NCBI GenBank assembly: GCA_038154245.1 | Contig: JAYOZP010000005.1 | Span: 7,307-71,306, forward strand | Origin: Nitrospinales bacterium | Lineage (GTDB): Bacteria > Nitrospinota > Nitrospinia > Nitrospinales > JAJDAT01 | DNA length: 64,000 nt | Reading direction: 5' to 3' | Shown here: positions 14,995-57,222 of the stretch, in pieces | Position numbering within the stretch: the stretch's first letter is position 1 | How the letters are laid out: every line of letters starts with the position of its first letter | Notes under the pieces: model-generated | What the model was told of the DNA's origin: nothing | Seen by the model: the letters and a program-made list of their open reading frames with translations, nothing else | Databases searched by the model: none | Translations under genes and position numbers: made by a program

Positions 14995-16122
14995 TTAAAT
15001 AACCTGCTCATAAATTTCGATGGTTTTCTTGGCGGCGGATTCCCAAGAGAATCTTTCCTTAGCCCTTTCCTGGCCTAATTGAGCCATTTCAACAGATCTT
15101 TTTTTATTTTCCAACGCTTCTATAATTGCCTCGGCCAAATCTTCAGGCGATCGAGGGGGGACAACCCTACCTGTGACTCCATCTTCCACAATTTCCGGAA
15201 GCGCCCCCGCTCTGGTGCAAACAATGGGAAGGTTTGCGGCCTGAGCCTCGGAAACGGCTAATCCAAAGCTCTCTATCCTCGACGGAAACACTCCTAACGC
15301 GCTCCTACTCGCCAGCTTTTGAATTTCTTTTGAAGATTTCCAATTCAAACAATTAATGTTTAAATTTGATTCTCTAATTCGATTTCTATAAGAAATCTCT
15401 TGGTTCCCTTCGCCAATCAGGTTGAGTTCTACCGGCCCTCGACGTTTCTGGACTAGTTCCATAGCCTTTAATAATTCAGGAATACCTTTCTCATCTTCTA
15501 ATCTTCCCCAAAAAATAATCTCATCGCAACTGCCTGGATTTCTAGTCACATCAAACCAAGAAGGGTCTATCCCAGGGGAAACCACTTGAATGCGTTCTAA
15601 ACTTGCGTCTCCTAAACCGTCCGCAATTAAATTACGGGAAAATTCGCTAAAAGCAATCAAACGATCCGCGTTTGCGGCGGCTTGTCTTAGCAAATAAAAA
15701 TTAACGTTTTTAAGAAAAAAAATTGGAGAAATAAGAGCCTTCAGAATACCTGTTTTTGGAATAAAAGGCGCATGAGAAGTAAAAACATGAGCGGTCGAAT
15801 CGTTGCGGGAAACCCACCGGAAAAAACAAGCTTCTTCCGCGTTACCATGAAAAACATTGAATTTATGTTTTCGAGCCAATTGCCACGCTTTTAATCCAAA
15901 CGAAAAAATATTTAAATTAATGGTCGCAACATTGAAATGGCGAACCCAATGTATATGATAACTGGCGGAGGCTTCTACTTCCTCTCCTGGTTGTTTGGAA
16001 TAAATTACGTGGACTTCATGCCCTAGATTGGACAACGCAGAGGCTAAAAAATGAACGGCGATTTGCCCACCTCCTTTAAATTTAGACCAAGGGGAAGAAT
16101 TTACCGAAAGACAAATTTTCAA
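14995..16122 (-). CDS. glycosyltransferase family 4 (GT-B)
   Basis: C-terminal ESFGLAVSEAQAANLPIV (E-x7-E type motif); N-terminal GGGQIAV. Confidence 0.85.
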   Translation of the reverse strand: MKICLSVNSSPWSKFKGGGQIAVHFLASALSNLGHEVHVIYSKQPGEEVEASASYHIHWVRHFNVATINLNIFSFGLKAWQLARKHKFNVFHGNAEEACFFRWVSRNDSTAHVFTSHAPFIPKTGILKALISPIFFLKNVNFYLLRQAAANADRLIAFSEFSRNLIADGLGDASLERIQVVSPGIDPSWFDVTRNPGSCDEIIFWGRLEDEKGIPELLKAMELVQKRRGPVELNLIGEGNQEISYRNRIRESNLNINCLNWKSSKEIQKLASRSALGVFPSRIESFGLAVSEAQAANLPIVCTRAGALPEIVEDGVTGRVVPPRSPEDLAEAIIEALENKKRSVEMAQLGQERAKERFSWESAAKKTIEIYEQVI

Positions 16123-16163: not shown

Positions 16164-16270
16164 TTAAGAGGACCTCTAATAAATTGGTATTTTTAAAAGC
16201 TTTTTGTCGGCTAGCTTTTGTTTTAAAAACTAATTTTTTTGCCAATTGGAGTTTTTTAAAGTTTCTCTAA
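16164..16270. repeat. TTAA-bounded inverted-repeat intergenic element, copy E (107 bp)
   Basis: Left arm TTAAGAGGACCTCTAATAAATTGGTATTTT. Reverse complement of the right arm TTAGAGAAACTTTAAAAAACTCCAATTGGC. Core stem AAAAGCT/AGCTTTT. Lies between the TPR and GT4 genes (both minus strand). Confidence 0.65.
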
Positions 16271-16294: not shown

Positions 16295-17110
16295 TCAATT
16301 TTGAGTAGGCGTTTCGTTCGAAGAATCTTCAAAATCTTTTGGTTCGTAGCCATATTCTTCATATAACTCATTTATGTATTCTTCCACCTCAAGAATTGCC
16401 TCTTTGGAATCCATTTCTTCTTCCATTAAAGCTTTAGCGATTCGTAAATGCAAAATCGCTTTAAAACCGTCCTGATTTGCGTCGTATGCTAAAGCTAAAT
16501 TATGATGGGCTTCTAAATAATCAGGTTCTAATTTAATTGCGTCCTGGTATTTTTGGATGGCCGGTTCAATACGATCTAATTTTGCGTATATGGAACCTAA
16601 TCCAAAATTAGCTTCGGCGTCTTCTGGGTCTAATTTTACCGCTTTTTCGCAAGCTTCAGCGGCTTCGCCTAATTTTTCCATTCCATCATAGATGGCGGCA
16701 AGAAGGAGATGAAATTCAGGTTCCTCTGAATTAAGCCTAACAGCCTCCTTACAAGCGACTAACGCTTCTTCTAATTTGTCAATTTTGCCTAGTACCTTGG
16801 CTAAACTAAAATGAGCTACCGAATGCTCCGGACACATTTGAATAACTTCTCGATACATTTGTTCGGCCTTGGAAACGTCGTCGCCTTCTTCATATATTGA
16901 TCCTAAAATAAATCGAGACTCGGCGTCTTTAGGATCCGCTTTTATTCTAGCCTCAAAATCCTCGATTATCTTGGAATAGCCTTGTTCTAGATTTTCTTCG
17001 CGATCCTCTCCTTCCATGGATTCTCCTTTAAAGTAGCGTTTTTTAAGAGGCGGATTATTAGGGATTCCTATATAAGCTGATTTTCTATACTGGCTTTTTT
17101 CATCCGTCAA
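16295..17110 (-). CDS. TPR-repeat protein
   Basis: Multiple 34-aa TPR units (AEANFGLGSIYAKLDRIEPAIQKYQDAIKLEPDY...). Confidence 0.85.
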   Translation of the reverse strand: MTDEKSQYRKSAYIGIPNNPPLKKRYFKGESMEGEDREENLEQGYSKIIEDFEARIKADPKDAESRFILGSIYEEGDDVSKAEQMYREVIQMCPEHSVAHFSLAKVLGKIDKLEEALVACKEAVRLNSEEPEFHLLLAAIYDGMEKLGEAAEACEKAVKLDPEDAEANFGLGSIYAKLDRIEPAIQKYQDAIKLEPDYLEAHHNLALAYDANQDGFKAILHLRIAKALMEEEMDSKEAILEVEEYINELYEEYGYEPKDFEDSSNETPTQN

Positions 17111-19093: not shown

Positions 19094-20206
19094 ATGGGCA
19101 ATCCATTTACAATAAAAAACCTGCAAAAGCAACTGCCTCGGTTGTACTCCACCATTCCCTTTTATTTATGGTCTAAATACGCCTTTCCACCAATGCATGT
19201 TTATTTTGAAGTGACCTATCGCTGTAATTTACGTTGCGACATGTGCCATTTTTTAGAAATTATTGAAGATACGGAAAAAAATAAAACTTATAAAAACGAA
19301 ATTAGTACAGAAACAATAAAAGATACTATTAGCAAAATTCCTCGATACGCAGTAATTACTTTCACTGGCGGGGAAGCCTTCATGAAAAAAGATTTCTTAG
19401 ATATTATGGAGTTTGCCGCAGCCCGTAACAAAGTCCATATCATAACTAACGGCACTTCTTTGAATGAAGCGGTTGTAGACAAAATTCTGAAAAACAGACT
19501 GAAATCTTTTTGGGGCTCTGGATTATTTTTTCTAGGAGTCTCCTTAGAAGGAAAAGAAGAGTTTCACGATCATTGTACACAGATACCCGGGTCGTTTCGA
19601 AAAACCACTAAAGGCCTAGAAAGATTAGTAGAGACAAAAAAACGCCTGGGTTCTCGCTATCCCATGCTTCACTTAACTTGCGTCATCGGCAAAAACAACG
19701 TAGAAGATTTAGCTTATCTATATGACTACGCAGAAGAACTTGGCATCGATGTTTGTAATTTTGTTTTAAGCAATCCAGCCGAATACTGGCATGGTAAAGG
19801 TTACGATCAAGCGGAACAATTAAGCTCTAAACCACAACCTGTCGAAGAAATTGACCCTAAGACTCTTATCGAGCAATTAGATCTTTTAGAAGTTAAAAGC
19901 AAAACCTTTAATACTCAGTTAAGGTATTCCCCTAATGGGATCACTAAAAAAGAAATTCTTAGATATTACTCAAATAAAAGTTCTTATAAAGATTACCGTT
20001 GTTTTTCGCCTTGGGCCAAAGTAGGAGTTTCAGCTTATGGAGATGTATTTAGCTGCCCGCACTATCGTCTTGGCAATATTTTGGAGTCTAACAACGAAAT
20101 AAATTGGAACTCTAAAGACCATCAAATGTTTCGGCAATCTCTAAAAAACGAATCGATCTTTCCCGGTTGTTTAGGTTGTTGCCAATCTGAGTACGTCGGA
20201 AACTAA
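19094..20206 (+). CDS. radical SAM protein with a SPASM-like C-terminal Cys cluster
   Basis: CNLRCDMCH (Cx3Cx2C). C-terminal CFSPW...CPH...CLGCC. Confidence 0.85.
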   Translation: MGNPFTIKNLQKQLPRLYSTIPFYLWSKYAFPPMHVYFEVTYRCNLRCDMCHFLEIIEDTEKNKTYKNEISTETIKDTISKIPRYAVITFTGGEAFMKKDFLDIMEFAAARNKVHIITNGTSLNEAVVDKILKNRLKSFWGSGLFFLGVSLEGKEEFHDHCTQIPGSFRKTTKGLERLVETKKRLGSRYPMLHLTCVIGKNNVEDLAYLYDYAEELGIDVCNFVLSNPAEYWHGKGYDQAEQLSSKPQPVEEIDPKTLIEQLDLLEVKSKTFNTQLRYSPNGITKKEILRYYSNKSSYKDYRCFSPWAKVGVSAYGDVFSCPHYRLGNILESNNEINWNSKDHQMFRQSLKNESIFPGCLGCCQSEYVGN

Positions 20207-20321
20207 AGTTATAGATAGTTTTTAAAAACTATTACTTTTATTAATTTGTTATTGCTTGGCCCACGATCTTAAAGCCTGGCATTTGAAAACTTTTTTTCAC
20301 GTATAGCTAAGCTTCAAAAAA

Positions 20322-20768
20322 ATGTTACGATCATCATCCGCTTATCCCGTTCAAAAAGAAATTCAAGAAACTTTTTTTGTTCGTATTTGGAATTCCTTTC
20401 GCTCTTTATTTGGCTTTAAAAAACCCGAAAAAATAGCCCAAACTCCCATTCCAAGCCCAGAACAATTAAGAGAGATGGTGGAGCGGTTTAAAGAAAAAAT
20501 TAAGAAAAACCCACAAGATAGTTCCTCTTATTTTAAACTCGGCGAATGCCTGATACATTTAAAACGAACCCGAGACGCTTTAGAGCCTCTGACCGAAGCT
20601 ACCAAAATAGACCCTAACTTTTACGAGGCTTTTTTTCACCTGGGGCAAGCTTATGCAAGTATAGGCCGGGACGAAGAAGCTATTCCGCCTTTGGAAAAAG
20701 CCATCGAACTAAAACCGGACAGCGAAGCGGTTAAAAAGGCTTTGGCGGGAGTCTATAAGGAGCAATGA
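20322..20768 (+). CDS. TPR-repeat protein, N-terminal part (ends at in-frame TGA 20766-20768)
   Basis: TPR units (YFKLGECLIHLKRTRDALEPLTEATKIDPNF...). The same frame continues as TPR sequence after the TGA. Confidence 0.7.
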   Translation: MLRSSSAYPVQKEIQETFFVRIWNSFRSLFGFKKPEKIAQTPIPSPEQLREMVERFKEKIKKNPQDSSSYFKLGECLIHLKRTRDALEPLTEATKIDPNFYEAFFHLGQAYASIGRDEEAIPPLEKAIELKPDSEAVKKALAGVYKEQ

Positions 20769-20870
20769 GAATATTTTGGAAAAGCTAAACGATACGACCT
20801 AGCTGAAGAAGCGTTTGAAAAAGCGATAAAAATCATTCCAAAGTTTGGTCCCGTTTATCTTGCAATAGGG

Positions 20871-21596
20871 ATGTCCTTTTCTCAACAGGGAAAATATGAA
20901 GAGGCTTTTAAGAAAATAGATCTAGCTCTAAAATACGATAAAAACCTAACAGTCGACGCATACTATCAATTGGGTCAAATTCACGAAAAGTTAGGCGACG
21001 TAAAAAAAGCTATGAAGGATTATAAAAATGCGATTTCAGCAAGCCCAAGAGCTGCATTACCTCAATTGGCATTGGGCTTACTTTACTCCAAACAAGATAA
21101 ATTCTTCGACGCGGCCAAACATCTTCAAGCGGCTGTCACCTACAGTCCCCGAGTAGCATCCGAAGGTTTTTTTCAACTGGGCAGAGCCTTATTAAAACTA
21201 GGTCGACACGACGAGGCTGTTGTTCCTTTTAAAGAAGCGGTAAATAGGTTTCCAGATAATAAAACAGTGAAAGATGGGCTAGCGGAATCTCTATTCCGCG
21301 TTAGCGAAAAATTAGCCGAAGAAAATCGTATTAGAGACCAAATTAAAATTTTAGAAGAAGCCGTCAAAGCTAATCCCCATTACGGTAAATGCCAGTTCTC
21401 TTTGGCCAAAGTTTACGACGAAGGGAAAGATGGAATCAACGCAGTTATCCATATGACATTAGCCCGGGAAGCCTTTGAGAAAAGTAAGGAAAAACAACCT
21501 GAAGCTCTGGCTTTAAAAACCCTGATGTCGTATTTCAAAAAATACGATCTAAATCCTCGCGATTACTCCGCAATCAAACTACCGCCTACTTATTGA
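20871..21596 (+). CDS. TPR-repeat protein, C-terminal part (same frame as 20322..20768)
   Basis: The first ATG falls in the middle of a TPR helix. The 34 codons upstream (20769-20870) are open and TPR-like (EYFGKAKRYDLAEEAFEKAIKIIPKFGPVYLAIG). Confidence 0.7.
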   Translation: MSFSQQGKYEEAFKKIDLALKYDKNLTVDAYYQLGQIHEKLGDVKKAMKDYKNAISASPRAALPQLALGLLYSKQDKFFDAAKHLQAAVTYSPRVASEGFFQLGRALLKLGRHDEAVVPFKEAVNRFPDNKTVKDGLAESLFRVSEKLAEENRIRDQIKILEEAVKANPHYGKCQFSLAKVYDEGKDGINAVIHMTLAREAFEKSKEKQPEALALKTLMSYFKKYDLNPRDYSAIKLPPTY

Positions 21597-21597
21597 T

Positions 21598-23478
21598 ATG
21601 GAAGGCCAAGATAAAATTCCACAAAATGGCGAGAATGGAGAATTCCAAAAAGACATTCGCCTATCCCATTTCACGATAGAGCATTCTCCAGATTCCATAA
21701 TCTGGTTCGATCAATATGCACGCATTCAACGCGTCAACCCAACCGCTTGTAAAACGTATGGTTATACCGCCGAAGAAATGACTTCGATAACTATTCACGA
21801 TTTAGACCCTAACTATCCCAAAGAAACATGGGAAGAAGCTTGGCAAGAATTTAAATCCGATAAATATCAGCAATTAGAAACCATCGGAATTACTAAAGCT
21901 GGCCGCAATTTTCCAGTCGAAGTTCACGCGCATTATTTTGAGTTTGAGGGTCAAGAATATGGTTGCGCCTACACACGCGACATAACTCAGCGAATATTAG
22001 CCGAAACTAATACTCGTTTCTCTCACTTCACGATTGAATACGCTCCAGATCTTATCTTTTGGTGCGATAGAAACGCCTTAATTCAACATGCAAACAAAAC
22101 TGCTTGCCAAGTGTACGGTTACTCTCCTCAGGAAATGACTGCGATGTCGATTTTCGATTTAGACCCCACCGTCACCGAAGAAAGCTGGGAGACCAATTGG
22201 GAGAAGATTAAATCGGACGGCGCAATCTCCATTGAATCCGAGGGTAAAACTAAAAATGGAAGAATTTTCCCAATTGAAGTAAAAGCTCATTTTTTAGAGT
22301 TTGAAGGCACCGAATTTCTCTGCTCTTTCGTTCGAGATATTAGCAAACGGAAAGAGAAAGAAAAAAAAGCTCGTTTTTCTCATTTCACAATTGAACGAGC
22401 TCCAGACTTAATATTTTGGTCGGATCGCAACGCAAATATCAAACACGCAAATAATGCGGCTTGCGCAACCTTTGGATATTCTCCTGAAGAAATAAAGGCA
22501 ATGCAGGTATTTGATTTAAATCCAGAAATGGAATCTAACAAATGGGAATCTTTTTGGGAAACCCTAAAAAAAAGAGGGACTTTGGTTATTGAATCAAAAG
22601 GAAAAACTAAAACAGGCAAAGTCTTTCCAACCGAAGTAAAAGCTCATTATTTGGAATTTGAAGGCGAAGAGTTTGCTTGCGCCTTTATTTTCGATATTAC
22701 AGACAGAATCAAAGAACAAGAAGAAAGAAAAAGACTAGCGACTGAAAAAGAAAGATTCGAAAGCGAATTGAAAATCGCCACATTAGTACAAAACGATTTT
22801 TTACCTGAAAAACCTCCCGAAAGATTTGATATCGATTTTGCGGCTAAAACGATTCCCGCAAAGTTTGTGGGCGGTGATTTTTACGACTTCATTCCTCTAG
22901 GCGGCGATTTATTGGCAATAGTTTTGGGCGACGTTGCTGGTAAAGGAGTCTCTGCTGCGCTTTATATGGCGAGATTATTAAGCGATTTCCGTCATGTTGC
23001 TCCCATGATGCTGGCCCCCGCCCAAACGCTCACTGAGGTGAATAAAATATTGGCCGAACGTTCGCGAAGAGGTATGTTTGCGACAACTTTATTTCTTTTT
23101 TTAGATTTAGAAACTAAATGCCTTACCGCTTCGAATGCCGGTCATCATCCTTTAATTATAAAGAAGAAAGACAAAGTAGCCGTGAACTGGGGCAACGCTA
23201 GCGGGGCTCCTATTGGAATTTTGCCAAGCGTTGATTATCAACAAGACGAAATTCAACTTGAAAGCGGCGACGTAGTATTTGCCTATACAGATGGCGCATC
23301 CGAACCTATGAATGCCGATGGAGAGCAGTTCGGAGTTTCAAGAATTAGAGACCGAATGGCTAATTTTTCAGGTTCGGCTCAGGAACTAATTGAACAGCTG
23401 GAAAAAGACATCGTCGAGTTTGTTGGCGATAGACCGGCGCACGACGATCTCACCTTCATCGCATTCCAGGTAAAATAA
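21598..23478 (+). CDS. 3xPAS sensor fused to a PP2C/SpoIIE-type serine phosphatase (RsbU-like)
   Basis: Three 119-codon PAS units starting R(L/F)SHFTIE. C-terminal GGDFYDF, GDVAGKGVSAALYMA, YTDG, HDDLT. Confidence 0.9.
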   Translation: MEGQDKIPQNGENGEFQKDIRLSHFTIEHSPDSIIWFDQYARIQRVNPTACKTYGYTAEEMTSITIHDLDPNYPKETWEEAWQEFKSDKYQQLETIGITKAGRNFPVEVHAHYFEFEGQEYGCAYTRDITQRILAETNTRFSHFTIEYAPDLIFWCDRNALIQHANKTACQVYGYSPQEMTAMSIFDLDPTVTEESWETNWEKIKSDGAISIESEGKTKNGRIFPIEVKAHFLEFEGTEFLCSFVRDISKRKEKEKKARFSHFTIERAPDLIFWSDRNANIKHANNAACATFGYSPEEIKAMQVFDLNPEMESNKWESFWETLKKRGTLVIESKGKTKTGKVFPTEVKAHYLEFEGEEFACAFIFDITDRIKEQEERKRLATEKERFESELKIATLVQNDFLPEKPPERFDIDFAAKTIPAKFVGGDFYDFIPLGGDLLAIVLGDVAGKGVSAALYMARLLSDFRHVAPMMLAPAQTLTEVNKILAERSRRGMFATTLFLFLDLETKCLTASNAGHHPLIIKKKDKVAVNWGNASGAPIGILPSVDYQQDEIQLESGDVVFAYTDGASEPMNADGEQFGVSRIRDRMANFSGSAQELIEQLEKDIVEFVGDRPAHDDLTFIAFQVK

Positions 23479-24041: not shown

Positions 24042-25172
24042 ATGGATTTTTCCATTTTAAAATTTTTCTCTTCTAAGAAAAAAGAGATAGCTGTCATGTC
24101 GGTCAGCATAGCGATTAGTCTAATTTTGGCTATCGCTGGCCTGGAGTTATATTTTCAAAAAAGATACTGGCACAGTTCTGGAACTCAATTTGACCCAGAA
24201 TTGGGATGGTCGGCCATCCCCAATAAAATGACTGAAAAAAAAGGCATTCGGTACACAACAAACTCTTTGGGATTTCGATCAGAGACAGTAGATTCATCAA
24301 GAAAACAAATACTAGTCCTCGGGGATTCAGTCGTTTGGGGACAAGGGGTTCAGGATAATGAAACGGTCGCAGCATACTTGGGAAACCACTTTCTTGATTA
24401 CCAAGTACTGAATATGGGTGTTTCGGGATATGGAATCGACCAATATTATTTACAATTGAAACAACATATTTCTCAATTAAACCCTAACATAATAGTTGTT
24501 GTTATTTTTTTGGGCAACGATTGGGGAGACTTCACAAAAGACACTCAGTATGGGAAAAGTAAACCTCTTTTTAAAACCGATACTTCTATATCTCATAATG
24601 AATTGGAAAATAGAGCTTCATTTCAAGTCGATCAGAATAAATTGGTTCTAACAAATAGTCCTGTTTCTCAGTATTCATGCTCAAATCTTATTTCCCGAAG
24701 CTGGACTTTAAGTTTACCTTTGCTCCAACCCGTCCGTGATTCTTTATGCACTATCAATAAACTCAATACTAGAGAAGGAATTTATGTCGCTATAGGCCTT
24801 CTGTTAAAAATCGGAAGTTTAGCGGAGGAAAAAAAATCGGAACTACTTTTTGTATTATCTCCTTCTAAAAGCGATTTCTATTACGATTTTAAAAAGCAAA
24901 ACTACGATGAACTTTTTAAAAAATATGAATCAAACAAATCTGAATCGTACAACAAGTTAAGTCAGTCGCTGTTTCAAAATATCTTTAAACAAACCCAGTT
25001 CCCTTACTTAGATTTTTACGAAATAATCAAAAAACGCGGTTGGAAAATAGAGGATCTTTATTTACCAGGAGATAACGATCATCTATCGCCTTTAGGCTTA
25101 AAATATATGGCAGAATCGATTCACAACTATTTTTTAAATCGTTCAACCATTAATAACACCTTTGATAATTAA
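24042..25172 (+). CDS. membrane-anchored SGNH/GDSL-family hydrolase
   Basis: N-terminal TM. Block I ILVLGDSVVWGQG, block III GNDW, block V DNDHLSP. Confidence 0.7.
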   Translation: MDFSILKFFSSKKKEIAVMSVSIAISLILAIAGLELYFQKRYWHSSGTQFDPELGWSAIPNKMTEKKGIRYTTNSLGFRSETVDSSRKQILVLGDSVVWGQGVQDNETVAAYLGNHFLDYQVLNMGVSGYGIDQYYLQLKQHISQLNPNIIVVVIFLGNDWGDFTKDTQYGKSKPLFKTDTSISHNELENRASFQVDQNKLVLTNSPVSQYSCSNLISRSWTLSLPLLQPVRDSLCTINKLNTREGIYVAIGLLLKIGSLAEEKKSELLFVLSPSKSDFYYDFKKQNYDELFKKYESNKSESYNKLSQSLFQNIFKQTQFPYLDFYEIIKKRGWKIEDLYLPGDNDHLSPLGLKYMAESIHNYFLNRSTINNTFDN

Positions 25173-25257
25173 CATTTATACTAGTTTGCTGTTGCCTAGC
25201 CCCTGGTTTTAAAGGCTAAGCCCCTGACAAATTTTGAATTTTTAGAGATTCCCTTAA
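25150..25257. repeat. TTAA-bounded inverted-repeat intergenic element, copy A (108 bp; left arm degenerate)
   Basis: Right arm CAAATTTTGAATTTTTAGAGATTCCCTTAA (25228-25257). Core stem GCCTAGCC/GGCTAAGC. The left arm TTAATAACACCTTTGATAATTAACATTTAT overlaps the last codons of the SGNH gene. Confidence 0.6.
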
Positions 25258-28873: not shown

Positions 28874-29680
28874 GTGATCAAAACGTTAGTCATTGGAGTT
28901 GCTGGACGAATGGGAAAAACGATTGTTTCCTGTTTGGAAGACACCGATGGAATCGAACTTTCTGGAGGAACAGAAACTTCTGGGAGCCCTAATATTGGCA
29001 AAGATGCAGGAGAATTGGCAGGCGTCGGCAAAAAAAATATTATTATCGATTCAGATTTAGATAAATTGGTACCTACTTGCGACGCCATTATTGATTTTAC
29101 AACTCCAGAATCTACTATGACAACGTTGGAATTCGCTTCAAAATATAACAAGGCTCTCGTCATTGGAACGACAGGACTTAATTCCGATCAAAAGCAAACG
29201 CTTAAAGAAAAATCGGCGAACATCCAATGCGTATTTGCTCCAAATATGAGTATTGGAGTGAACGTTCTTTTTAAAACCGTAAAAGATCTTGCCAAAACAA
29301 TGGGCGACGCCTACGACGTAGAAATTGTAGAAGCTCACCATAAGTTTAAAAAAGACGCTCCCAGCGGAACTGCTGTCAGGTTATCAGAAATTGCCGCAGA
29401 AGCCCTTGGACGCAACCTTGAAACCGACGGAGTCTATGGCCGTAAAGGAATGAGTCCAGGTCGAGGAGCTAAAGAAATTGGTATCCACACTGTTCGAGCT
29501 GGCGATATCGTTGGCGAACATAGAGTCATGTTTGGAGGGATGGGAGAAACTCTAGAAATTTCACATCGCGCTCAAAGCAGAGATACTTTTGCTAGAGGGT
29601 CCATTGCGGCGGCTAAATGGGTCGTAGAGCAAGCTCCTGGGCTATACGACATGCAAGACGTTCTTGGACTGACTAATTAA
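28874..29680 (+). CDS. dapB: 4-hydroxy-tetrahydrodipicolinate reductase
   Basis: GTG start after AAGGAG. GVAGRMGK, EAHHKFKKDAPSGTA. Confidence 0.95.
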   Translation: MIKTLVIGVAGRMGKTIVSCLEDTDGIELSGGTETSGSPNIGKDAGELAGVGKKNIIIDSDLDKLVPTCDAIIDFTTPESTMTTLEFASKYNKALVIGTTGLNSDQKQTLKEKSANIQCVFAPNMSIGVNVLFKTVKDLAKTMGDAYDVEIVEAHHKFKKDAPSGTAVRLSEIAAEALGRNLETDGVYGRKGMSPGRGAKEIGIHTVRAGDIVGEHRVMFGGMGETLEISHRAQSRDTFARGSIAAAKWVVEQAPGLYDMQDVLGLTN

Positions 29681-29699: not shown

Positions 29700-29797
29700 T
29701 TAACAGAACCTCTAATAATTCATACTTTTACTTATTCGCTATCGCCTAGGCAATGGCTAGGCTCTCGGCAAATTTTGATTTTTAGACATCCCCTTAA
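29700..29797. repeat. TTAA-bounded inverted-repeat intergenic element, copy B (98 bp)
   Basis: Left arm TTAACAGAACCTCTAATAATTCATACTTTT. Right arm CAAATTTTGATTTTTAGACATCCCCTTAA. Core stem GCCTAG/CTAGGC. Lies between dapB and the Mo-oxidoreductase gene. Confidence 0.7.
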
Positions 29798-29815: not shown

Positions 29816-30580
29816 ATGGATCACCCCATAGAAAAATCCATTGCCAGTCGCAGAAATTTCCTCCGCGCGCTTCCTCCATTCCTTGCGGGAATTTTTGGGT
29901 ATTTATTTAAAGGGTCCGCTTGGGCTATTCCAGATCATCGTAACAGCAAAAATATTCCCAAAAACTATATACAAAACCGGGATATTCCCGGCTTTCATAT
30001 TCGAAGCGCAAACCCTTTTCTTGGGGTCGAAGTAAAAGATTGGGGCCTCGCTATTGGCGGATTAGTAAAAAAATCACTCGCTTTATCCTACGAAGATCTA
30101 TTTGATTTTAAGACAATACAACAAGTTTCCAGGCTCAAGTGCGTAGAGTGCTGGTCAGCTAAAGCGAAATGGGAAGGATTTACTTTTGAAGAAATTGTCA
30201 AACGAGTTCAACCTCTCCCTGAAGCAAAATACGTATACTTTAAATCTGCAGATTCTTATTACGAAAGCTATCCTCTTGAAGAGCTATTAAAACCAAGAGT
30301 TCTATTGGTTTTAAAAATGAACGATCGCGCGCTAAGTAAAGATCATGGATTCCCGCTACGACTCATAGCTCCATTCAAATATGGATATAAAAATATTAAA
30401 TATATCACCGGAATCGAATTCCGAAAAGATCGTAGTCGCAATTATTGGGCTGACAACGGCCCTTATTCTATTGATGGAACGATCCAACCCGGCATCGATC
30501 ACCCGTTAGATTTTAAAAAGAAACCGCTCCCGATCAACGGCGGCGAAGTATTTCACTTCTTCGACGAACCTCCATCATGA
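29816..30580 (+). CDS. Tat-exported molybdopterin-binding oxidoreductase (sulfite-oxidase family, YedY/MsrP-like)
   Basis: Twin-arginine signal SRRNFLRALPPFLAG. Mo-domain features LKCVECWS and GFPLRLIAPFKYGYKNIKYI. Confidence 0.8.
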   Translation: MDHPIEKSIASRRNFLRALPPFLAGIFGYLFKGSAWAIPDHRNSKNIPKNYIQNRDIPGFHIRSANPFLGVEVKDWGLAIGGLVKKSLALSYEDLFDFKTIQQVSRLKCVECWSAKAKWEGFTFEEIVKRVQPLPEAKYVYFKSADSYYESYPLEELLKPRVLLVLKMNDRALSKDHGFPLRLIAPFKYGYKNIKYITGIEFRKDRSRNYWADNGPYSIDGTIQPGIDHPLDFKKKPLPINGGEVFHFFDEPPS

Positions 30581-51976: not shown

Positions 51977-52082
51977 TTAAGGGAGTCTCTAATAATTCGA
52001 AATTTTAGCTTGAGGCAACTCGCTTGCCTTTTGTTTGTAAAGGCAGCTCGCGGCCAAATTCAATTTTTAGAGGTTCCCTTAA
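51977..52082. repeat. TTAA-bounded inverted-repeat intergenic element, copy C (106 bp; best-preserved TIRs)
   Basis: Left arm TTAAGGGAGTCTCTAATAATTCGAAATTT. Reverse complement of the right arm TTAAGGGAACCTCTAAAAATTGAATTTGG. Core stem TGCCTTT/AAAGGCA. The right end abuts ATG 52083. Confidence 0.75.
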
Positions 52083-53024
52083 ATGAAAAAAATTAATTTA
52101 TTGTTTCTCGCTCCAAATTGGCGAGTAAGCCTTCTACGCAAATTCCAAGACACATTGAACTCTTTGCAGCCCGGAAATAGCATTGCCGGCGCCGATAGCA
52201 ACGCCTATTCCCCAGCTTTAAAAATATTAGACTCAAAGTTAACTATTCCTAGATTTGATAATCCAGATTGTCTTGACAGTATTTTAAATTTTTGCCGAGA
52301 GAAATCAATAGATGCAGTTATCCCATTAACCAATCGTGCTATCGAATATCTCGATCAAAACAGAAAACCCTTTACCGATCTGAGTATTCGTCTCTATATA
52401 AACGATTCGGAAGTAATTTCTATTTGCCACGATAAAGAGAAACTTTCAAACTTCTTTCAAGAAAATGGAATCCCTACGCCAGATCCATTTGACCCGGCAT
52501 CTCCCAATTTCCCATTGATATCAAAACCGAAAAGAGGGGAAGGAGGAGGTTGCGTTGTCATCAATAACCAACTAGACCTTGATTACTACAGCGCTAAACT
52601 TTCCGATCAAACGCTTCAACGCTTCGTAGACGGAGAAGAATACACAATAGATTGGTTTTCAGATGCAAACGGAGTCCCCTTAGTAATCGCTCCCAGAAAA
52701 AGAATCGAAACCAGAGCGGGAGAAGTCACTCTTAGTCAAATCGAAATGAATGAAGAGATAATCGCGCAGGCAAAAAAAATGGCCACCCTTTTAGGACTTA
52801 AAGGACCGTGCAATATACAGGGATTTAAAGAACCTTCAGGTCAGTTTCTATTCACGGATATAAACTTAAGATTTGGAAGCGGTTCGGTTCATTCGATTTC
52901 GCAAGGAGCGGATATTCCCAATCTAATTTTCAGGGAACTTAGCGGAGAAAAGTTGGAATTCGATCTGACTTCGATTCAGGATGGATCTGTAATGTCTAGA
53001 TATAACGATGGATTTTATTTCTAG
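52083..53024 (+). CDS. ATP-grasp domain protein
   Basis: ISKPKRGEGGGCVVI and EEYTIDWFSD...APRKRIETRAGEV, typical of carbamoyl-phosphate-synthase-like ATP-grasp ligases. Confidence 0.75.
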   Translation: MKKINLLFLAPNWRVSLLRKFQDTLNSLQPGNSIAGADSNAYSPALKILDSKLTIPRFDNPDCLDSILNFCREKSIDAVIPLTNRAIEYLDQNRKPFTDLSIRLYINDSEVISICHDKEKLSNFFQENGIPTPDPFDPASPNFPLISKPKRGEGGGCVVINNQLDLDYYSAKLSDQTLQRFVDGEEYTIDWFSDANGVPLVIAPRKRIETRAGEVTLSQIEMNEEIIAQAKKMATLLGLKGPCNIQGFKEPSGQFLFTDINLRFGSGSVHSISQGADIPNLIFRELSGEKLEFDLTSIQDGSVMSRYNDGFYF

Positions 53025-53743
53025 GAATCTGACGACGGGTTGAGATGATCTTCAAATAAATATTTTAATTCCTCGACTCCGTTTTCAAGAGTAAACCCAG
53101 TAATCTTCGCAAAACCATCAAGAATCAATAAACTATTAATATTAGCGTCGCCCGAAGACATATTTTTTATCCGACTGGCTAAGCCAAGATTTACAATACT
53201 AACTTGCTCTAATTCATCCGCCAATTCTTGCCAATCAATTTTAGGCAAAACGCTTTTATTTTTACTCATTAAATATTTTTTTAGTAAAAAAACAGACGCG
53301 GATCTAAATGTAGTTTCCTCGGCAGAAGCAAAAGGGAGATGGTATCTAACCATTGGCCTTAATGTCGACAGAACTGGACACCCACTGGTAACATTCACAA
53401 TTCCAATCATGCTTGAGATTCCAGACTGTAAACTTGTTTCTTTAAAATAAACTCGCTCGGGTACTTTCGCTATGACTTTTACTTCTTCAAAAGAAAAACT
53501 TGCTTTGAAGCTATCCAATATATAATGGTATTCTTTTGCAATAGGGCAAAAGGGGTTATCTTCGGATTTCAAGGTACAATTAGAACATTTATGATGATCG
53601 AGCTGAGTCCATTCAGGAAGCTTGCTAGTATCAACCTCAGACTTTAAAGCTAAACTTTCTTTATCTAGCTTAAAGAGAAAATCCCTAGTAGAGTTGTCAG
53701 GAAATCGAAACTGATATCGTATTTCGAAATCATCAGATGACAT
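53021..53743 (-). CDS. hypothetical protein with a HHKCSNC...FCP Cys/His motif
   Basis: 240-aa ORF; no family recognised. Its stop overlaps the stop of the convergent ATP-grasp gene in a shared CTAG. Confidence 0.5.
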   Translation of the reverse strand: MSSDDFEIRYQFRFPDNSTRDFLFKLDKESLALKSEVDTSKLPEWTQLDHHKCSNCTLKSEDNPFCPIAKEYHYILDSFKASFSFEEVKVIAKVPERVYFKETSLQSGISSMIGIVNVTSGCPVLSTLRPMVRYHLPFASAEETTFRSASVFLLKKYLMSKNKSVLPKIDWQELADELEQVSIVNLGLASRIKNMSSGDANINSLLILDGFAKITGFTLENGVEELKYLFEDHLNPSSDS

Positions 53744-53960
53744 GAAGCGGCTTTCTCTTTATTGATCGGATAGCTTTTCCCAATAGCGCACCCAACTAAA
53801 ATTGGCAGGATATAAAGAAGCCGCTAAGAAAAAAGGAATCAAAATTGAATTAAACACCCGTAAACTTAAAGAAAAATCATTATTAGGGCTTAGGCTTCAT
53901 CTATATTATCAGAGTTTTAGGATCAAAAAAACAAACAAAATTTAAGGCAGATAACTCAAA

Positions 53961-54683
53961 TTGACACTAGCTAAAGAAAGATTAATATTTGCTCTTGACG
54001 TACCCGATACTAAAGAAGCTGTTCGATTAACTAAAGTATTAGACGACCAAGTAGGTTATTTTAAAATAGGATTGGAGCTATTTGTAGCCGAAGGCCCCTC
54101 CGTAATTCAAGCGGTTACTGAAAATAGTTCGGCGGGAATTTTCTTAGATTTAAAGTTACATGATATTCCAGCCACTGTCTCGGGCGCTTTAAGGTCGGCT
54201 TCCAAATACCCTGTCCGTTTTGTCACAGTGCATTGCGATCACCCTAACTTGTTACAAAACAAAGAATCTTTTCGAAAAGATATAGATATTTTAGGAATTA
54301 CCATTTTGACAAGCGCATCGCCAGACCACTTGTCGCTCCTAGGTTTTTCCCAAAACATTAGTCTTCCTCAGTTAGCTACTGAAAGAGCTGAAATAGCGCA
54401 AAGAGCGGGTTGTTCCGGAGCCGTTTGTTCCGCTCAAGAAGTTGCAAAAATTCGCCAAGCGTGCGGTCCAGATTTTTTGCTAATTGTTCCCGGAATAAGA
54501 CCTCAATGGGAAGGAATGTCAACCGACGACCAATCGCGGGTTGCTACTCCCGAGCAAGCTATAAAAGATGGAGCGGATTACATTGTTGTTGGAAGACCTA
54601 TACGAAACGCAAAAGATCCTAAAGAGGCCGCTCAAAAAATTGTTACCGAAATTAAACAAGGGTTGTCTTTTCAAAACCCATAA
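53961..54683 (+). CDS. pyrF: orotidine-5'-phosphate decarboxylase
   Basis: TTG start. LIFALDV, YFKIGLELF, DLKLHDIPATV, VVGRPI. Confidence 0.9.
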   Translation: MTLAKERLIFALDVPDTKEAVRLTKVLDDQVGYFKIGLELFVAEGPSVIQAVTENSSAGIFLDLKLHDIPATVSGALRSASKYPVRFVTVHCDHPNLLQNKESFRKDIDILGITILTSASPDHLSLLGFSQNISLPQLATERAEIAQRAGCSGAVCSAQEVAKIRQACGPDFLLIVPGIRPQWEGMSTDDQSRVATPEQAIKDGADYIVVGRPIRNAKDPKEAAQKIVTEIKQGLSFQNP

Positions 54684-54932
54684 AAATCTGGCGCTTAACC
54701 CAAAAAATATTTTATTTTTCGACCATTAGCCTTCGTCAAATCTAACTGCTTTAAGAGCTTTATTTCAACCAATTACGCTTTCTATTAATGGCGGCAATTT
54801 GACAAATTTGATATGATACTCTTGTTTTCTAAAAACTATTTCAAGAAAACCTCCTAGTTTCCGAATTCCTTTTACGAAACAGTTGAACTATCCAATAACC
54901 ATATTAAAATCAAAAATTTTAAATAATTAAAA

Positions 54933-55391
54933 ATGATTTTAAACCTAATTTATCTTTTATCTTTAGTCGTTTGGATTGGTTCCATTATCTTTTTCTCTTT
55001 CTTTGCGGCGCCTGCAATATTTAAAACTCTGGAACGTGAAAAAGCGGGAGAAGTTGTAGGAGTCATTTTCCCCAGATATTATTTAATTGGTTATATTTCA
55101 GGCGCTATCGCCTTAGCCATTTTATTAATAAACTCTCAAGCCTTTACCGACCCCAAAATAGTTTTAACTTTTGTCATGTTATGCTGCTCTGCTTTTGCCG
55201 GGCAAGTAGTCGGCCCTAAGGCAAGAGGTTTAAAACCCTTGATTAAAAGTGAAGAAAACGCAGATAAACTAAGCGATCTCAAATCTCAATTTGACCGTTT
55301 ACATTCTTTATCCGTCAAATTGAATGGGACAGTTCTCATTCTCGGTTTAATATTATTGGGCTACACCTCAAAAGGCTTATCTTTAGGTTAA
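54933..55391 (+). CDS. DUF4149/TMEM205-like membrane protein
   Basis: 4 TM helices. N-terminal LSLVVWIGSIIFFSFFAAPAIFKTL pattern recalled for this family. Confidence 0.55.
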   Translation: MILNLIYLLSLVVWIGSIIFFSFFAAPAIFKTLEREKAGEVVGVIFPRYYLIGYISGAIALAILLINSQAFTDPKIVLTFVMLCCSAFAGQVVGPKARGLKPLIKSEENADKLSDLKSQFDRLHSLSVKLNGTVLILGLILLGYTSKGLSLG

Positions 55392-55407
55392 TTTTGAAAT
55401 AATCATT

Positions 55408-57222
55408 ATGAACATTTTAGGAATTTCAGCTTTTTATCATGATTCTGCGGCCTGCCTGGTCCAAGATGGAGAAATAACAGCCGCAGCGCAAGAAGAACGA
55501 TTTACCCGCAAAAAACACGACGCTTCTTTTCCTCATAAGGCCGTCGAATACTGTCTTCAAGAAGCTGGTATTGACGTGGAAGATTTAGATTATGTCGGTT
55601 TTTATGATAAGCCTTTTATCAAGTTCGAAAGAATTTTAGAAACCTACTTAAGCGTCGCTCCCATGGGATTAAAGTCGTGTCTTAAAGCAGTACCTTTGTG
55701 GCTAAAAGACAAACTTTGGACCCGCCAAAATGTACGAAACAACTTAGATTACTCAGGTCCTGTTCTGTTCGCCGAGCATCACGAATCCCATGCCGCCAGC
55801 GCATTCTTCCCATCGCCCTTTGAAGAAGCCGCTGTACTAACTATGGACGGGGTTGGGGAATGGGCTACAAGCAGTATCAGCGTCGGTAAAGGAAATAAAC
55901 TTGAACTCATTAAAGAATTACAATTTCCCCATTCGCTTGGGTTACTTTATTCGGCTTTTACCTATTACTTAGGCTTTAAAGTCAATAGCGGAGAATATAA
56001 AGTAATGGGGTTAGCTCCTTATGGCAACCCAAAATATGTCGACCTCATAAGAGAAAACTTGATAGATCTAAAAGACGACGGTTCGTTCCGAATGGACATG
56101 TCGTATTTCAACTATCTCGCAGGTCTTACAATGACCAATCAAAAGTTTGACAAATTATTCGGAGGACCAGCTCGTAAGGGAGAATCTAAATTAACCCAAA
56201 AGGAAATGGATATCGCAGCGTCGCTACAAGCGATCACCGAAGAAATCATGATAAAAATGTCGCGTTACGTTCGTAACCTGACTGGAATGAAAAACCTTTG
56301 CCTTGCCGGAGGGGTAGCTCTCAATTGCGTGGGTAATGGGAAAATACTTCGAGAAAAAGTTTTTGACGATATTTGGATTCAACCGGCCGCAGGCGACGCT
56401 GGAGGCGCTTTGGGCGTAGCTCTATATATCTGGCATCAAGCTTTGAATAGTTCGCGCAAGGTAAATGGCGGCGATTCAATGAAGGGGTCTTACTTAGGAC
56501 CTGAGTTTAAAACCGAAACAATCCGGACTTATTTGCAAAAAAACGAAATACCCTTCAAAGAATACAACGACAACGAATTAATTGAAACAGTCGCCAAACA
56601 TTTAAAAGATGAAAAGGTAATTGGCTGGTTTCAAGGACGAATGGAGTTTGGACCAAGAGCTCTTGGAGGCAGGAGTGTCATTGGCGACGCAAGAAGTAAA
56701 AAAATGCAATCTGTTATGAATTTAAAGATCAAATATAGAGAATCGTTTCGCCCTTTTGCGCCATCTGTTTTGAGAGAAAAAGTAAGCGAATGGTTTGAGA
56801 TGGATGCACCCAGTCCCTATATGTTATTAGTCGCTCCAGTAAAAGAAACTCGAAAAATTGAAATGACAGAAGAACAAAAAGAACTATTTGGAATTGATTT
56901 GTTAAATATTCCTCGTTCTGATATCCCAGCCGTAACTCACGTGGATTATACAGCCCGTATCCAAACGGTAGAAAAAACCACCCATCCACGTTATCACGCA
57001 CTATTAGAAAGTTTTGAAAAGCAGACCGGATGTCCAATTATCGTCAATACGTCCTTCAACGTACGAGGAGAACCTATCGTTTGCACTCCTGAAGACGCAT
57101 TTCGCTGTTTTATGCGTACAGAAATGGATTATCTAGTTTTGGGAAATTGCGTTCTGGACAAACTAGACCAAAAACCCCTCGAAAACGACTCCGACTGGAA
57201 AAACGAATTTGAGTTGGATTGA
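55408..57222 (+). CDS. carbamoyltransferase (NodU/CmcH family)
   Basis: MNILGISAFYHDSAACLV, LAGGVALNCVGNG, NTSFNVRGEPIV. Confidence 0.9.
   Translation: MNILGISAFYHDSAACLVQDGEITAAAQEERFTRKKHDASFPHKAVEYCLQEAGIDVEDLDYVGFYDKPFIKFERILETYLSVAPMGLKSCLKAVPLWLKDKLWTRQNVRNNLDYSGPVLFAEHHESHAASAFFPSPFEEAAVLTMDGVGEWATSSISVGKGNKLELIKELQFPHSLGLLYSAFTYYLGFKVNSGEYKVMGLAPYGNPKYVDLIRENLIDLKDDGSFRMDMSYFNYLAGLTMTNQKFDKLFGGPARKGESKLTQKEMDIAASLQAITEEIMIKMSRYVRNLTGMKNLCLAGGVALNCVGNGKILREKVFDDIWIQPAAGDAGGALGVALYIWHQALNSSRKVNGGDSMKGSYLGPEFKTETIRTYLQKNEIPFKEYNDNELIETVAKHLKDEKVIGWFQGRMEFGPRALGGRSVIGDARSKKMQSVMNLKIKYRESFRPFAPSVLREKVSEWFEMDAPSPYMLLVAPVKETRKIEMTEEQKELFGIDLLNIPRSDIPAVTHVDYTARIQTVEKTTHPRYHALLESFEKQTGCPIIVNTSFNVRGEPIVCTPEDAFRCFMRTEMDYLVLGNCVLDKLDQKPLENDSDWKNEFELD

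Follow-up and report, generated by a model that had tools for sequence, protein, structure and literature searches.

The window analysed here, a 64-kb stretch of DNA with a G+C content of about 39%, encodes chemotaxis, SMC, DapB and similar genes, and it carries a family of repeats of about 100 bp. Its proteins have close homologues that bear the labels Nitrospinota, Nitrospinales or Nitrospinaceae. An earlier note on this DNA had claimed four copies (E, A, B and C), all of which were recovered at the same coordinates. The copies follow one plan of about 90–100 bp, in which 17–18-bp terminal inverted repeats and a short subterminal sequence surround a GC-richer central palindrome; the terminal repeat is GGGAACCTCTAAAAATT at one end and the variant TCTAATAA at the other, so that the inverted-repeat arms around a central hairpin described in the earlier note were borne out. 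The elements proper are 90–100 nt long and have no coding capacity. Copy C with its TTAA duplications (51977-51980 and 52079-52082) occupies 51977..52082 on the + strand, and in its element proper of 98 nt (51981-52078, + strand) the left arm, at 51981-51998 (GGGAGTCTCTAATAATTC), is IRR-like and the right arm, at 52061-52078 (reverse complement GGGAACCTCTAAAAATTG), is IRL-like, with the central hairpin between them at 52022-52047; the TTAA on the right adjoins the ATG of an ATP-grasp gene at 52083. Copy B (29700..29797 with its TTAA duplications, + strand; element proper 29704-29793, 90 nt) has a shorter central loop and sits in a spacer flanked by dapB (28874-29680) and a molybdopterin oxidoreductase gene (29816-30580). 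Copy A (25150..25257 with its TTAA duplications, + strand; element proper 25154-25253) has a mutated left arm, TAACACCTTTGATAATT. Copy E (16164..16270, + strand; element proper 16168-16266) is degraded, with flanks TTAA and CTAA and an eroded right arm, and lies between the minus-strand genes of a GT4 glycosyltransferase (14995-16122) and a TPR protein (16295-17110). The four are oriented alike on the + strand, where TCTAATAA marks the left arm and TCTAAAAA the right arm, a uniformity that is not significant with n = 4. With moderate confidence, a probable fifth copy is recognized as a decayed relic at about 20211..20300 (+ strand), in the spacer after a radical-SAM gene (19094-20206); its interior is alignable to the family and its terminal repeats are lost, and the nhmmer matches are weak (E 0.07 with a profile of the four copies and E 0.5 with a 16-copy profile). 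The location of the copies in short spacers between co-directional genes was borne out as well, except that copy A lies partly inside a GDSL-lipase ORF.

We confirmed that these repeats of about 100 bp are a real, multicopy family. The arm consensus TTAAGGGAACCTCTAAWAAT, with at most three mismatches, has 6 matches in the window, where 100 dinucleotide shuffles lead one to expect 0.03, and a repeat finder independently flags both arms (families D9 and D15). The terminal arms are 17–20 bp long, and over 20 copies the pairing in the terminal helix reaches 89%. An independent HMM, built from 16 copies of other Nitrospinota MAGs without the window sequence, returned from the window exactly C (71.2 bits, E 4e-21), A (57.9), B (48.9) and E (27.2, E 2e-7) as clear matches, all on the + strand, against a maximum of 7.9 bits in 20 block-shuffled windows. 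Shuffled controls, for which the earlier note had asked, fall below the true copies on both measures. A profile made from the four copies found no further full copy in the 64-kb window.

The same family was found in five other Nitrospinota MAGs at 16 sites at least, with 74–80% identity over about 107 nt; a search of related genomes had been proposed in the earlier note. The MAG CAYFMN01 holds at least 10 of these copies, and the density in the window is four copies and one relic in 64 kb. Two subfamilies, told apart by the central stem, are present among the Nitrospinota copies. A two-arm pattern scan with one genome per species, in which the pattern required TTAA flanks, gave at least 118 matches at no fewer than 116 loci. 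Outside the Nitrospinota, elements with unrelated interiors have the same ends, TTAA-GGGnnnnTCTAAWAA, in at least 10 phyla among the matches listed; these include Bacteroidota, Ignavibacteria, Planctomycetota, Omnitrophota, Victivallales and Nitrospirales, several gamma- and betaproteobacteria, Desulfobacterales and Firmicutes. About 9 of the 118 listed matches look like chance hits in AT-rich DNA, and the remainder form at least 12 multi-member interior families and about 40 singletons; the 15-nt end core GGGnnnnTCTAAWAA with TTAA flanks is kept in some 105 or more of the 118. A literature search with the end sequence as a string returned only unrelated primers from open-access papers; since no such paper was found to contain these end sequences, both the window family and the wider set sharing its ends appear to be undescribed.

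Several elements met in the scan deserve mention in their own right. One interior family of about 105 nt (...TTTGCGAACTTTGC...TCTCTGCGTTAAATATTTAC...) is common to Bacteroidota and Ignavibacteria/Melioribacter MAGs (loci L031, L038, L044, L049, L052, L055, L059, L061, L076, L086, L099, L100, L102, L108, L111, L114 and others), so that this interior family must either be old or have passed from one phylum to another. In a Chloroflexi MAG (L105, 3642-3744) a 103-nt element that matched the scan pattern has 19-nt terminal arms that are perfect reverse complements and ends that differ (TTAA-CAGGCTGTCTAAAAAG...); it is possibly a separate TTAA-flanked MITE family. In Streptococcus danieliae (L074, 3685-3791) a 107-bp element with the ends described here has the length of the pneumococcal RUP, and no match to it was found in phage or plasmid collections.

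As judged from orthologous loci, the mobility of the MITE copies is shown by empty sites, which the earlier note had proposed to look for and which were found at B, C and E. Site B is empty in L133, whose DapB is 94% identical and whose spacer between dapB and the oxidoreductase gene reads ...ATATTT-TTAA-CATAAC... with a single TTAA, where the window has ...gatat-TTAA-(90 nt)-TTAA-cacact.... Site C is empty in L127, L128 and L129 (ATP-grasp protein 81% identical), which read ...AATAATAAAT-CTAA-ATGAAAAAAATT where the window has ...aataataaat-TTAA-(98 nt)-TTAA-atgaaaaaaatt; in these three loci the spacer from the NUDIX to the ATP-grasp gene ends AAAT-CTAA-ATG, with CTAA directly before the ATG. 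Site E is a single TTAA in L151 and L153, and L152 (MAG CAYFMN01) has a more decayed remnant at the orthologous position. Copy A is absent from the orthologous spacer of L133. The spacer that holds the relic at about 20211-20300 contains a full copy in L152 (5814-5914, 76 bits) and weak relics in L133 and L151. None of the relatives examined has A, B or C, which are therefore specific to the window lineage. The insertions span a range of ages, from the relic with counterparts at the loci of three relatives, through E, common to one related lineage, to the lineage-specific A, B and C. A partial copy (model positions 1-79) was also seen in L127 (12604-12684), after an OMP-decarboxylase gene, at a site where the window, L129 and L131 are without the element; the right arm and part of the ancestral spacer seem to have been lost there together by deletion. 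In addition, the exact proteins of the window are encoded in the short-read assemblies SRR26337559 and SRR26337551, and one of these contigs (L001, SRR26337559, window 52054-56021) starts within copy C, at 52054, as a contig broken by a repeat would, which suggests that the MITE repeat breaks short-read assemblies.

The parent of the family was sought in other genomes. The window contains no transposase gene of the type described below, in agreement with the earlier note, which had found none with these ends. An all-against-all comparison of 1016 ORFs from the 116 listed loci showed that only housekeeping families recur, with no transposase among them, and long-range end pairs in the same loci were mostly neighbouring MITEs. 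When the end consensus by itself was compared with plasmid sequences by BLAST, Sulfitobacter plasmids came up in which an annotated IS5-family transposase gene lies 58 nt downstream of AATTTTTAGAGGTGCCC abutting TTAA; the Pfam domains of the product are DUF772 and DDE_Tnp_1, and its plasmid relatives, as named by NCBI, include IS1194 (42% identity) and IS1169 (43%). A transposase of the same clade in a gammaproteobacterial MAG lies behind TAAA abutting GGGCACCTCTAAAAAT, about 0.6 kb from a MITE with an identical 16-nt end; a MITE and a same-end transposase in one genome were seen in this gammaproteobacterial variant only. A metagenome scan looked for GGGAAYCTCTAAAAATT with three conserved N-terminal codons after it at a spacing like that of an IS. 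Each of its 14 matches carries a full transposase homologue with 47–56% identity over about 340 aa; as the pattern required the three IS5-type codons, the 14/14 is partly built in, whereas the homology over 340 aa is not. The full-length IS with the same terminal repeats that the earlier note had advised searching for was found in the metagenomes, where four ISs of 1205–1260 bp have GGGAACCTCTAAAAATT at both ends (17/17). The transposases of these same-end ISs score 261–305 bits on NCBIfam NF033581 (cutoff 140). The metagenome contigs are short and several of their flanks differ at one base (e.g., TTTA / TTAA), perhaps because repeat contigs are chimeric. Similarity between MITE and IS fades after about 20–25 nt (24–27/36), and a simple internal deletion of these particular ISs is no more than a possible origin of the MITE.

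Taken as a whole, we put at about 0.85 the probability that the MITE family derives from, and is presumably mobilized in trans by, an IS5-family IS of the IS1194/IS1169-like clade (NF033581), a clade with a single DDE transposase composed of DUF772 and DDE_Tnp_1. The repeat core GGGnnCCTCTAA(A/T)AA is common to IS1194, IS1169 and the MITE, and the transposases of the ISs with the exact MITE end fall in the same NCBIfam NF033581. An IS1194-like copy of Lactococcus raffinolactis (L123) has its IRL, GGGCACCTCTAAAAAC, upstream of the gene and its IRR, GGGCACCTCTAATAAG, downstream; the A/T asymmetry of this IS1194-like IS (IRL ..TCTAAAAA and IRR ..TCTAATAA) is that of the right and left MITE arms. 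In contrast, IS1194 and IS1169 are autonomous elements of 1.2–1.3 kb with a transposase gene, whereas the window elements are about 100 bp long and unrelated in their interior, and the ends of IS1169 itself (GAGGAGTTCTATAAA) are more distant from those of the MITE. The IS5-family element of the Sulfitobacter plasmids (L118, 1806-3026, and L120, 301-1521; two copies 99.5% identical) has the canonical end on the transposase-upstream side only, and its other boundary (GCAATTGGCAGAGCC...) is without an inverted repeat; perhaps it is a truncated or one-ended variant that was nonetheless able to multiply. With one recognizable end only, it was left out of the call of the target-site duplication.

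The elements had been described as TTAA-bounded. The TTAA flanks are indeed present, but the outer TTAA is a 4-bp target-site duplication and lies outside the element. The sequence outside GGG... on full-length ISs varies (TTAA, TTTA, TAAA, TATA, TTAT, CTTA and GATT), which makes TTAA a flank and not part of the element. At a TTAA target, duplications of TA and of TTAA give identical sequence, which leaves the cases without TTAA to decide for 4 bp. MITE copies that were not selected by the scan pattern have the flanks TTTA/TTTA, TATA/TATA and TAAA/TAAA, and full-length ISs have TTAA/TTAA, TTAT/TTAT, CTTA/CTTA and GATT/GATT; the non-palindromic 4-bp direct repeats among these (TTTA, TAAA, CTTA and GATT) exclude a duplication of TA only. 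IS5 has been reported to make tetranucleotide duplications (PMC10379815).

The same flanks decide against the mobilization that the earlier note had thought compatible with the termini, that is, a TA-duplicating element of the IS630/mariner type. According to that reading, the repeats would be an IS630/Tc1-mariner-type MITE like RUP, with an element AGGG...CCCT placed at the central TA of TTAA and TA only duplicated. The filled and empty sequences at TTAA sites fit it equally well, RUP is a 107-bp MITE with TA termini attributed to IS630-Spn1 (PMC2229807; PMC3049150), and the element of S. danieliae joins the same length of 107 bp to the ends found here. Nevertheless, TTTA and TAAA beside MITEs and CTTA and GATT beside full ISs cannot come from a TA-only duplication, every transposase found beside these ends belongs to the IS5 family, and no IS630-type gene was met beside them in searches that were not aimed at IS630. 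We therefore regard an IS630 origin as highly improbable. A known non-coding RNA family, or a REP/BIME palindrome mobilized by a RAYT (Y1) transposase, would likewise account for elements that are intergenic, palindromic and repeated. In the Rfam check that the earlier note had recommended for excluding a known RNA family, no match in the whole window reached a gathering threshold, and the best permissive hits on the copies had E values of 0.95–0.99. REPs are 20–40 bp long with a GTAG or CGTC tag at one end (PMC3733652), whereas the present elements, of about 100 bp, start with GGG, are bounded by genuine terminal inverted repeats and duplicate 4 bp; the chance that either identity is correct is next to negligible. 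Integron attC sites were considered and dropped, as the sequence holds no GTTRRRY/RYYYAAC cores. The general view of the repeats as non-autonomous transposon relics, or MITEs, was upheld by the terminal repeats, the lack of a transposase nearby and the empty orthologous sites.

With the IS5-family origin as the preferred reading, the elements can be set beside better-known ones. IS5 of E. coli (InsH) and ISKpn26 have the same transposase domain architecture as the same-end ISs, but with only 27–29% transposase identity over two thirds of the protein they are distant relatives. The ends of IS5 differ from those of the MITE (GGAAGGTGCGAA...). The tetranucleotide duplication is a further likeness, CTAG having been reported for IS5 (PMC10379815). 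IS5-derived MITEs are already known, namely BrickBuilt and MITEPgRS in Porphyromonas gingivalis and ATR in Neisseria, whose parent is ISNme1 (PMC4596501). These are also non-autonomous elements with terminal repeats that match IS5-family ISs, and filled and empty sites of BrickBuilt_4 show a 4-bp duplication, GAAA (PMC4596501). They differ from the window family in their ends (GAGACCTTTGCA), size, minisatellite-containing structure and hosts, and there is no sequence relation between them. RUP of Streptococcus pneumoniae and Correia of Neisseria, which were compared with the window MITE by description only, are intergenic hairpin MITEs of about 100–150 bp in many copies that are sometimes fused to gene ends (PMC2229807; PMC3049150), but TA termini are reported for them, and RUP has been attributed to IS630-Spn1. 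The earlier term Correia-like holds for the architecture as an analogy, whereas membership in that family has no support. In kind, the window elements are classical MITEs and ordinary selfish DNA.

The earlier note had also expected every copy to be co-transcribed and able to fold into a long imperfect hairpin, an architecture that can serve as a terminator, an RNase target or a promoter. Folding better than shuffles was found for copy C on both strands (z -4.1 on + and -5.3 on -) and for copy B on the minus strand only (z -2.5), but not for A, E or the + strand of B. Consensus scans for promoters and terminators around copies B and C gave nothing above shuffles, and among the Nitrospinota copies the orientation relative to co-directional flanking genes is mixed (6 same, 4 opposite); with only one copy folding clearly, the proposed regulatory roles found no support here. 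The RNAalifold consensus consists of the terminal-repeat helix only, and for this reason the central stem was drawn by hand. In the resulting end-to-end hairpin, 83% of the cells are paired across the 20 copies, and paired cells with changes on both sides number 29 against 17 ± 3 in column shuffles (0 of 500 reach 29), a control that ignores the relatedness of the copies.

It is conceivable that the host has recruited some or all copies as structured elements of RNA or DNA, and that the palindrome persists for that reason; mRNA-stabilizing or attenuating hairpins, control of translation downstream and protein-binding palindromes are possible roles. The paired and doubly changed cells of the hairpin speak for this, as do the two subfamilies, which differ by compensating changes in the central stem, the folding of copy C together with its AGAGG 10 nt ahead of the ATG, and the interior of the relic at about 20211-20300, which is better kept than its ends. 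Yet the shuffle control leaves relatedness aside, and a control hairpin slid by +1 scores nearly as well (0.160 vs. 0.171). The restriction of the RNAalifold consensus to the terminal repeats, the unremarkable folding of A, E and B (+), the mixed orientation relative to genes and the promoter and terminator signals that do not exceed shuffles all point the other way, and close relatives have the same genes around empty sites. A host takeover is, in our estimation, unlikely. We read the palindrome as kept by descent and perhaps weak constraint, and not as evidence of an RNA gene. It may be suggested, quite tentatively and with much more doubt than belief, that the window family is a branch of an uncatalogued, bacteria-wide superfamily of MITEs of about 90–115 bp, all tied to one IS5-group transposase clade, in which the palindrome from end to end, with its compensating changes, could have persisted because it is needed and not by chance, possibly for a hairpin or cruciform intermediate during transposition or for host use of the hairpin in mRNA.

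If the MITE family is indeed mobilized by an IS5-family transposase, the biology of that family suggests that the enzyme would bind both terminal repeats. Insertion would take place at an AT-rich tetranucleotide, preferably TTAA, a preference to be read with the fact that the genome scan pattern itself required TTAA, and a 4-bp staggered cut followed by repair would produce the duplicated tetranucleotide observed here. TTAA holds TAA on both strands and would be regenerated on each side of the insertion, so that an insertion at a stop codon or just upstream of a start codon would leave the coding sequence intact. An intact coding sequence would in turn explain why copies survive tightly between genes, as they are found, and since the duplication restores TAA, TTAA targets at stop codons may be safe landing sites. 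All 20 Nitrospinota copies are intergenic; the stop codon of a flanking gene lies inside the duplicated TTAA in 4 of them and within 2 nt of it in two more.

The effects of single insertions on the adjoining genes can be seen at copies A and C. The GDSL-lipase ORF (24042-25172) reads 23 nt into copy A, which supplies its last 7 codons (INNTFDN) and its stop (...RST-INNTFDN*); the window lipase has 376 aa, compared with 365 aa for the L133 orthologue, whose C-terminus reads ...SYFFNNSEN*. Copy C puts TTTTTAGAGGTTCCCTTAA directly before the ATG at 52083 and has taken the place of the 5' leader immediately ahead of the ATP-grasp gene. Selfish DNA whose effects are incidental is the best description of the copies. 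For annotation, the MITEs explain odd gene ends and leaders in Nitrospinota, such as a lipase C-terminus encoded by a MITE and transposon sequence before a start codon, as well as contig breaks in short-read assemblies. The results also link the TTAA-flanked palindromes of about 100 bp of many uncultured phyla to one IS5-group clade, and they suggest a simple reason for the tolerance of such elements in compact genomes, namely that the duplicated TTAA target regenerates TAA stops. The graded ages of the copies relative to syntenic relatives make them usable as insertion markers for lineage tracing among marine nitrite oxidizers. The current understanding of how MITEs work is unchanged by these results.

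Two genes of the window close to the relic showed features of a different kind. At 20322-21596 a 424-codon TPR gene has one in-frame TGA (20766-20768), at a position where the L133 orthologue has Cys (KEQ-C-EYFG). Selenocysteine was considered for this codon and rejected, as no hairpin follows it (z 0.07); the TGA is more probably a nonsense mutation or an error of sequencing. The gene at 21598-23478, for a protein of 626 aa, contains three 112-nt direct repeats (21874-22699; spacing 357 nt, 63–73% identity). The syntenic orthologue in L133 has repeated PAS domains and SpoIIE, which indicates that the 112-nt repeats are probably PAS domains.
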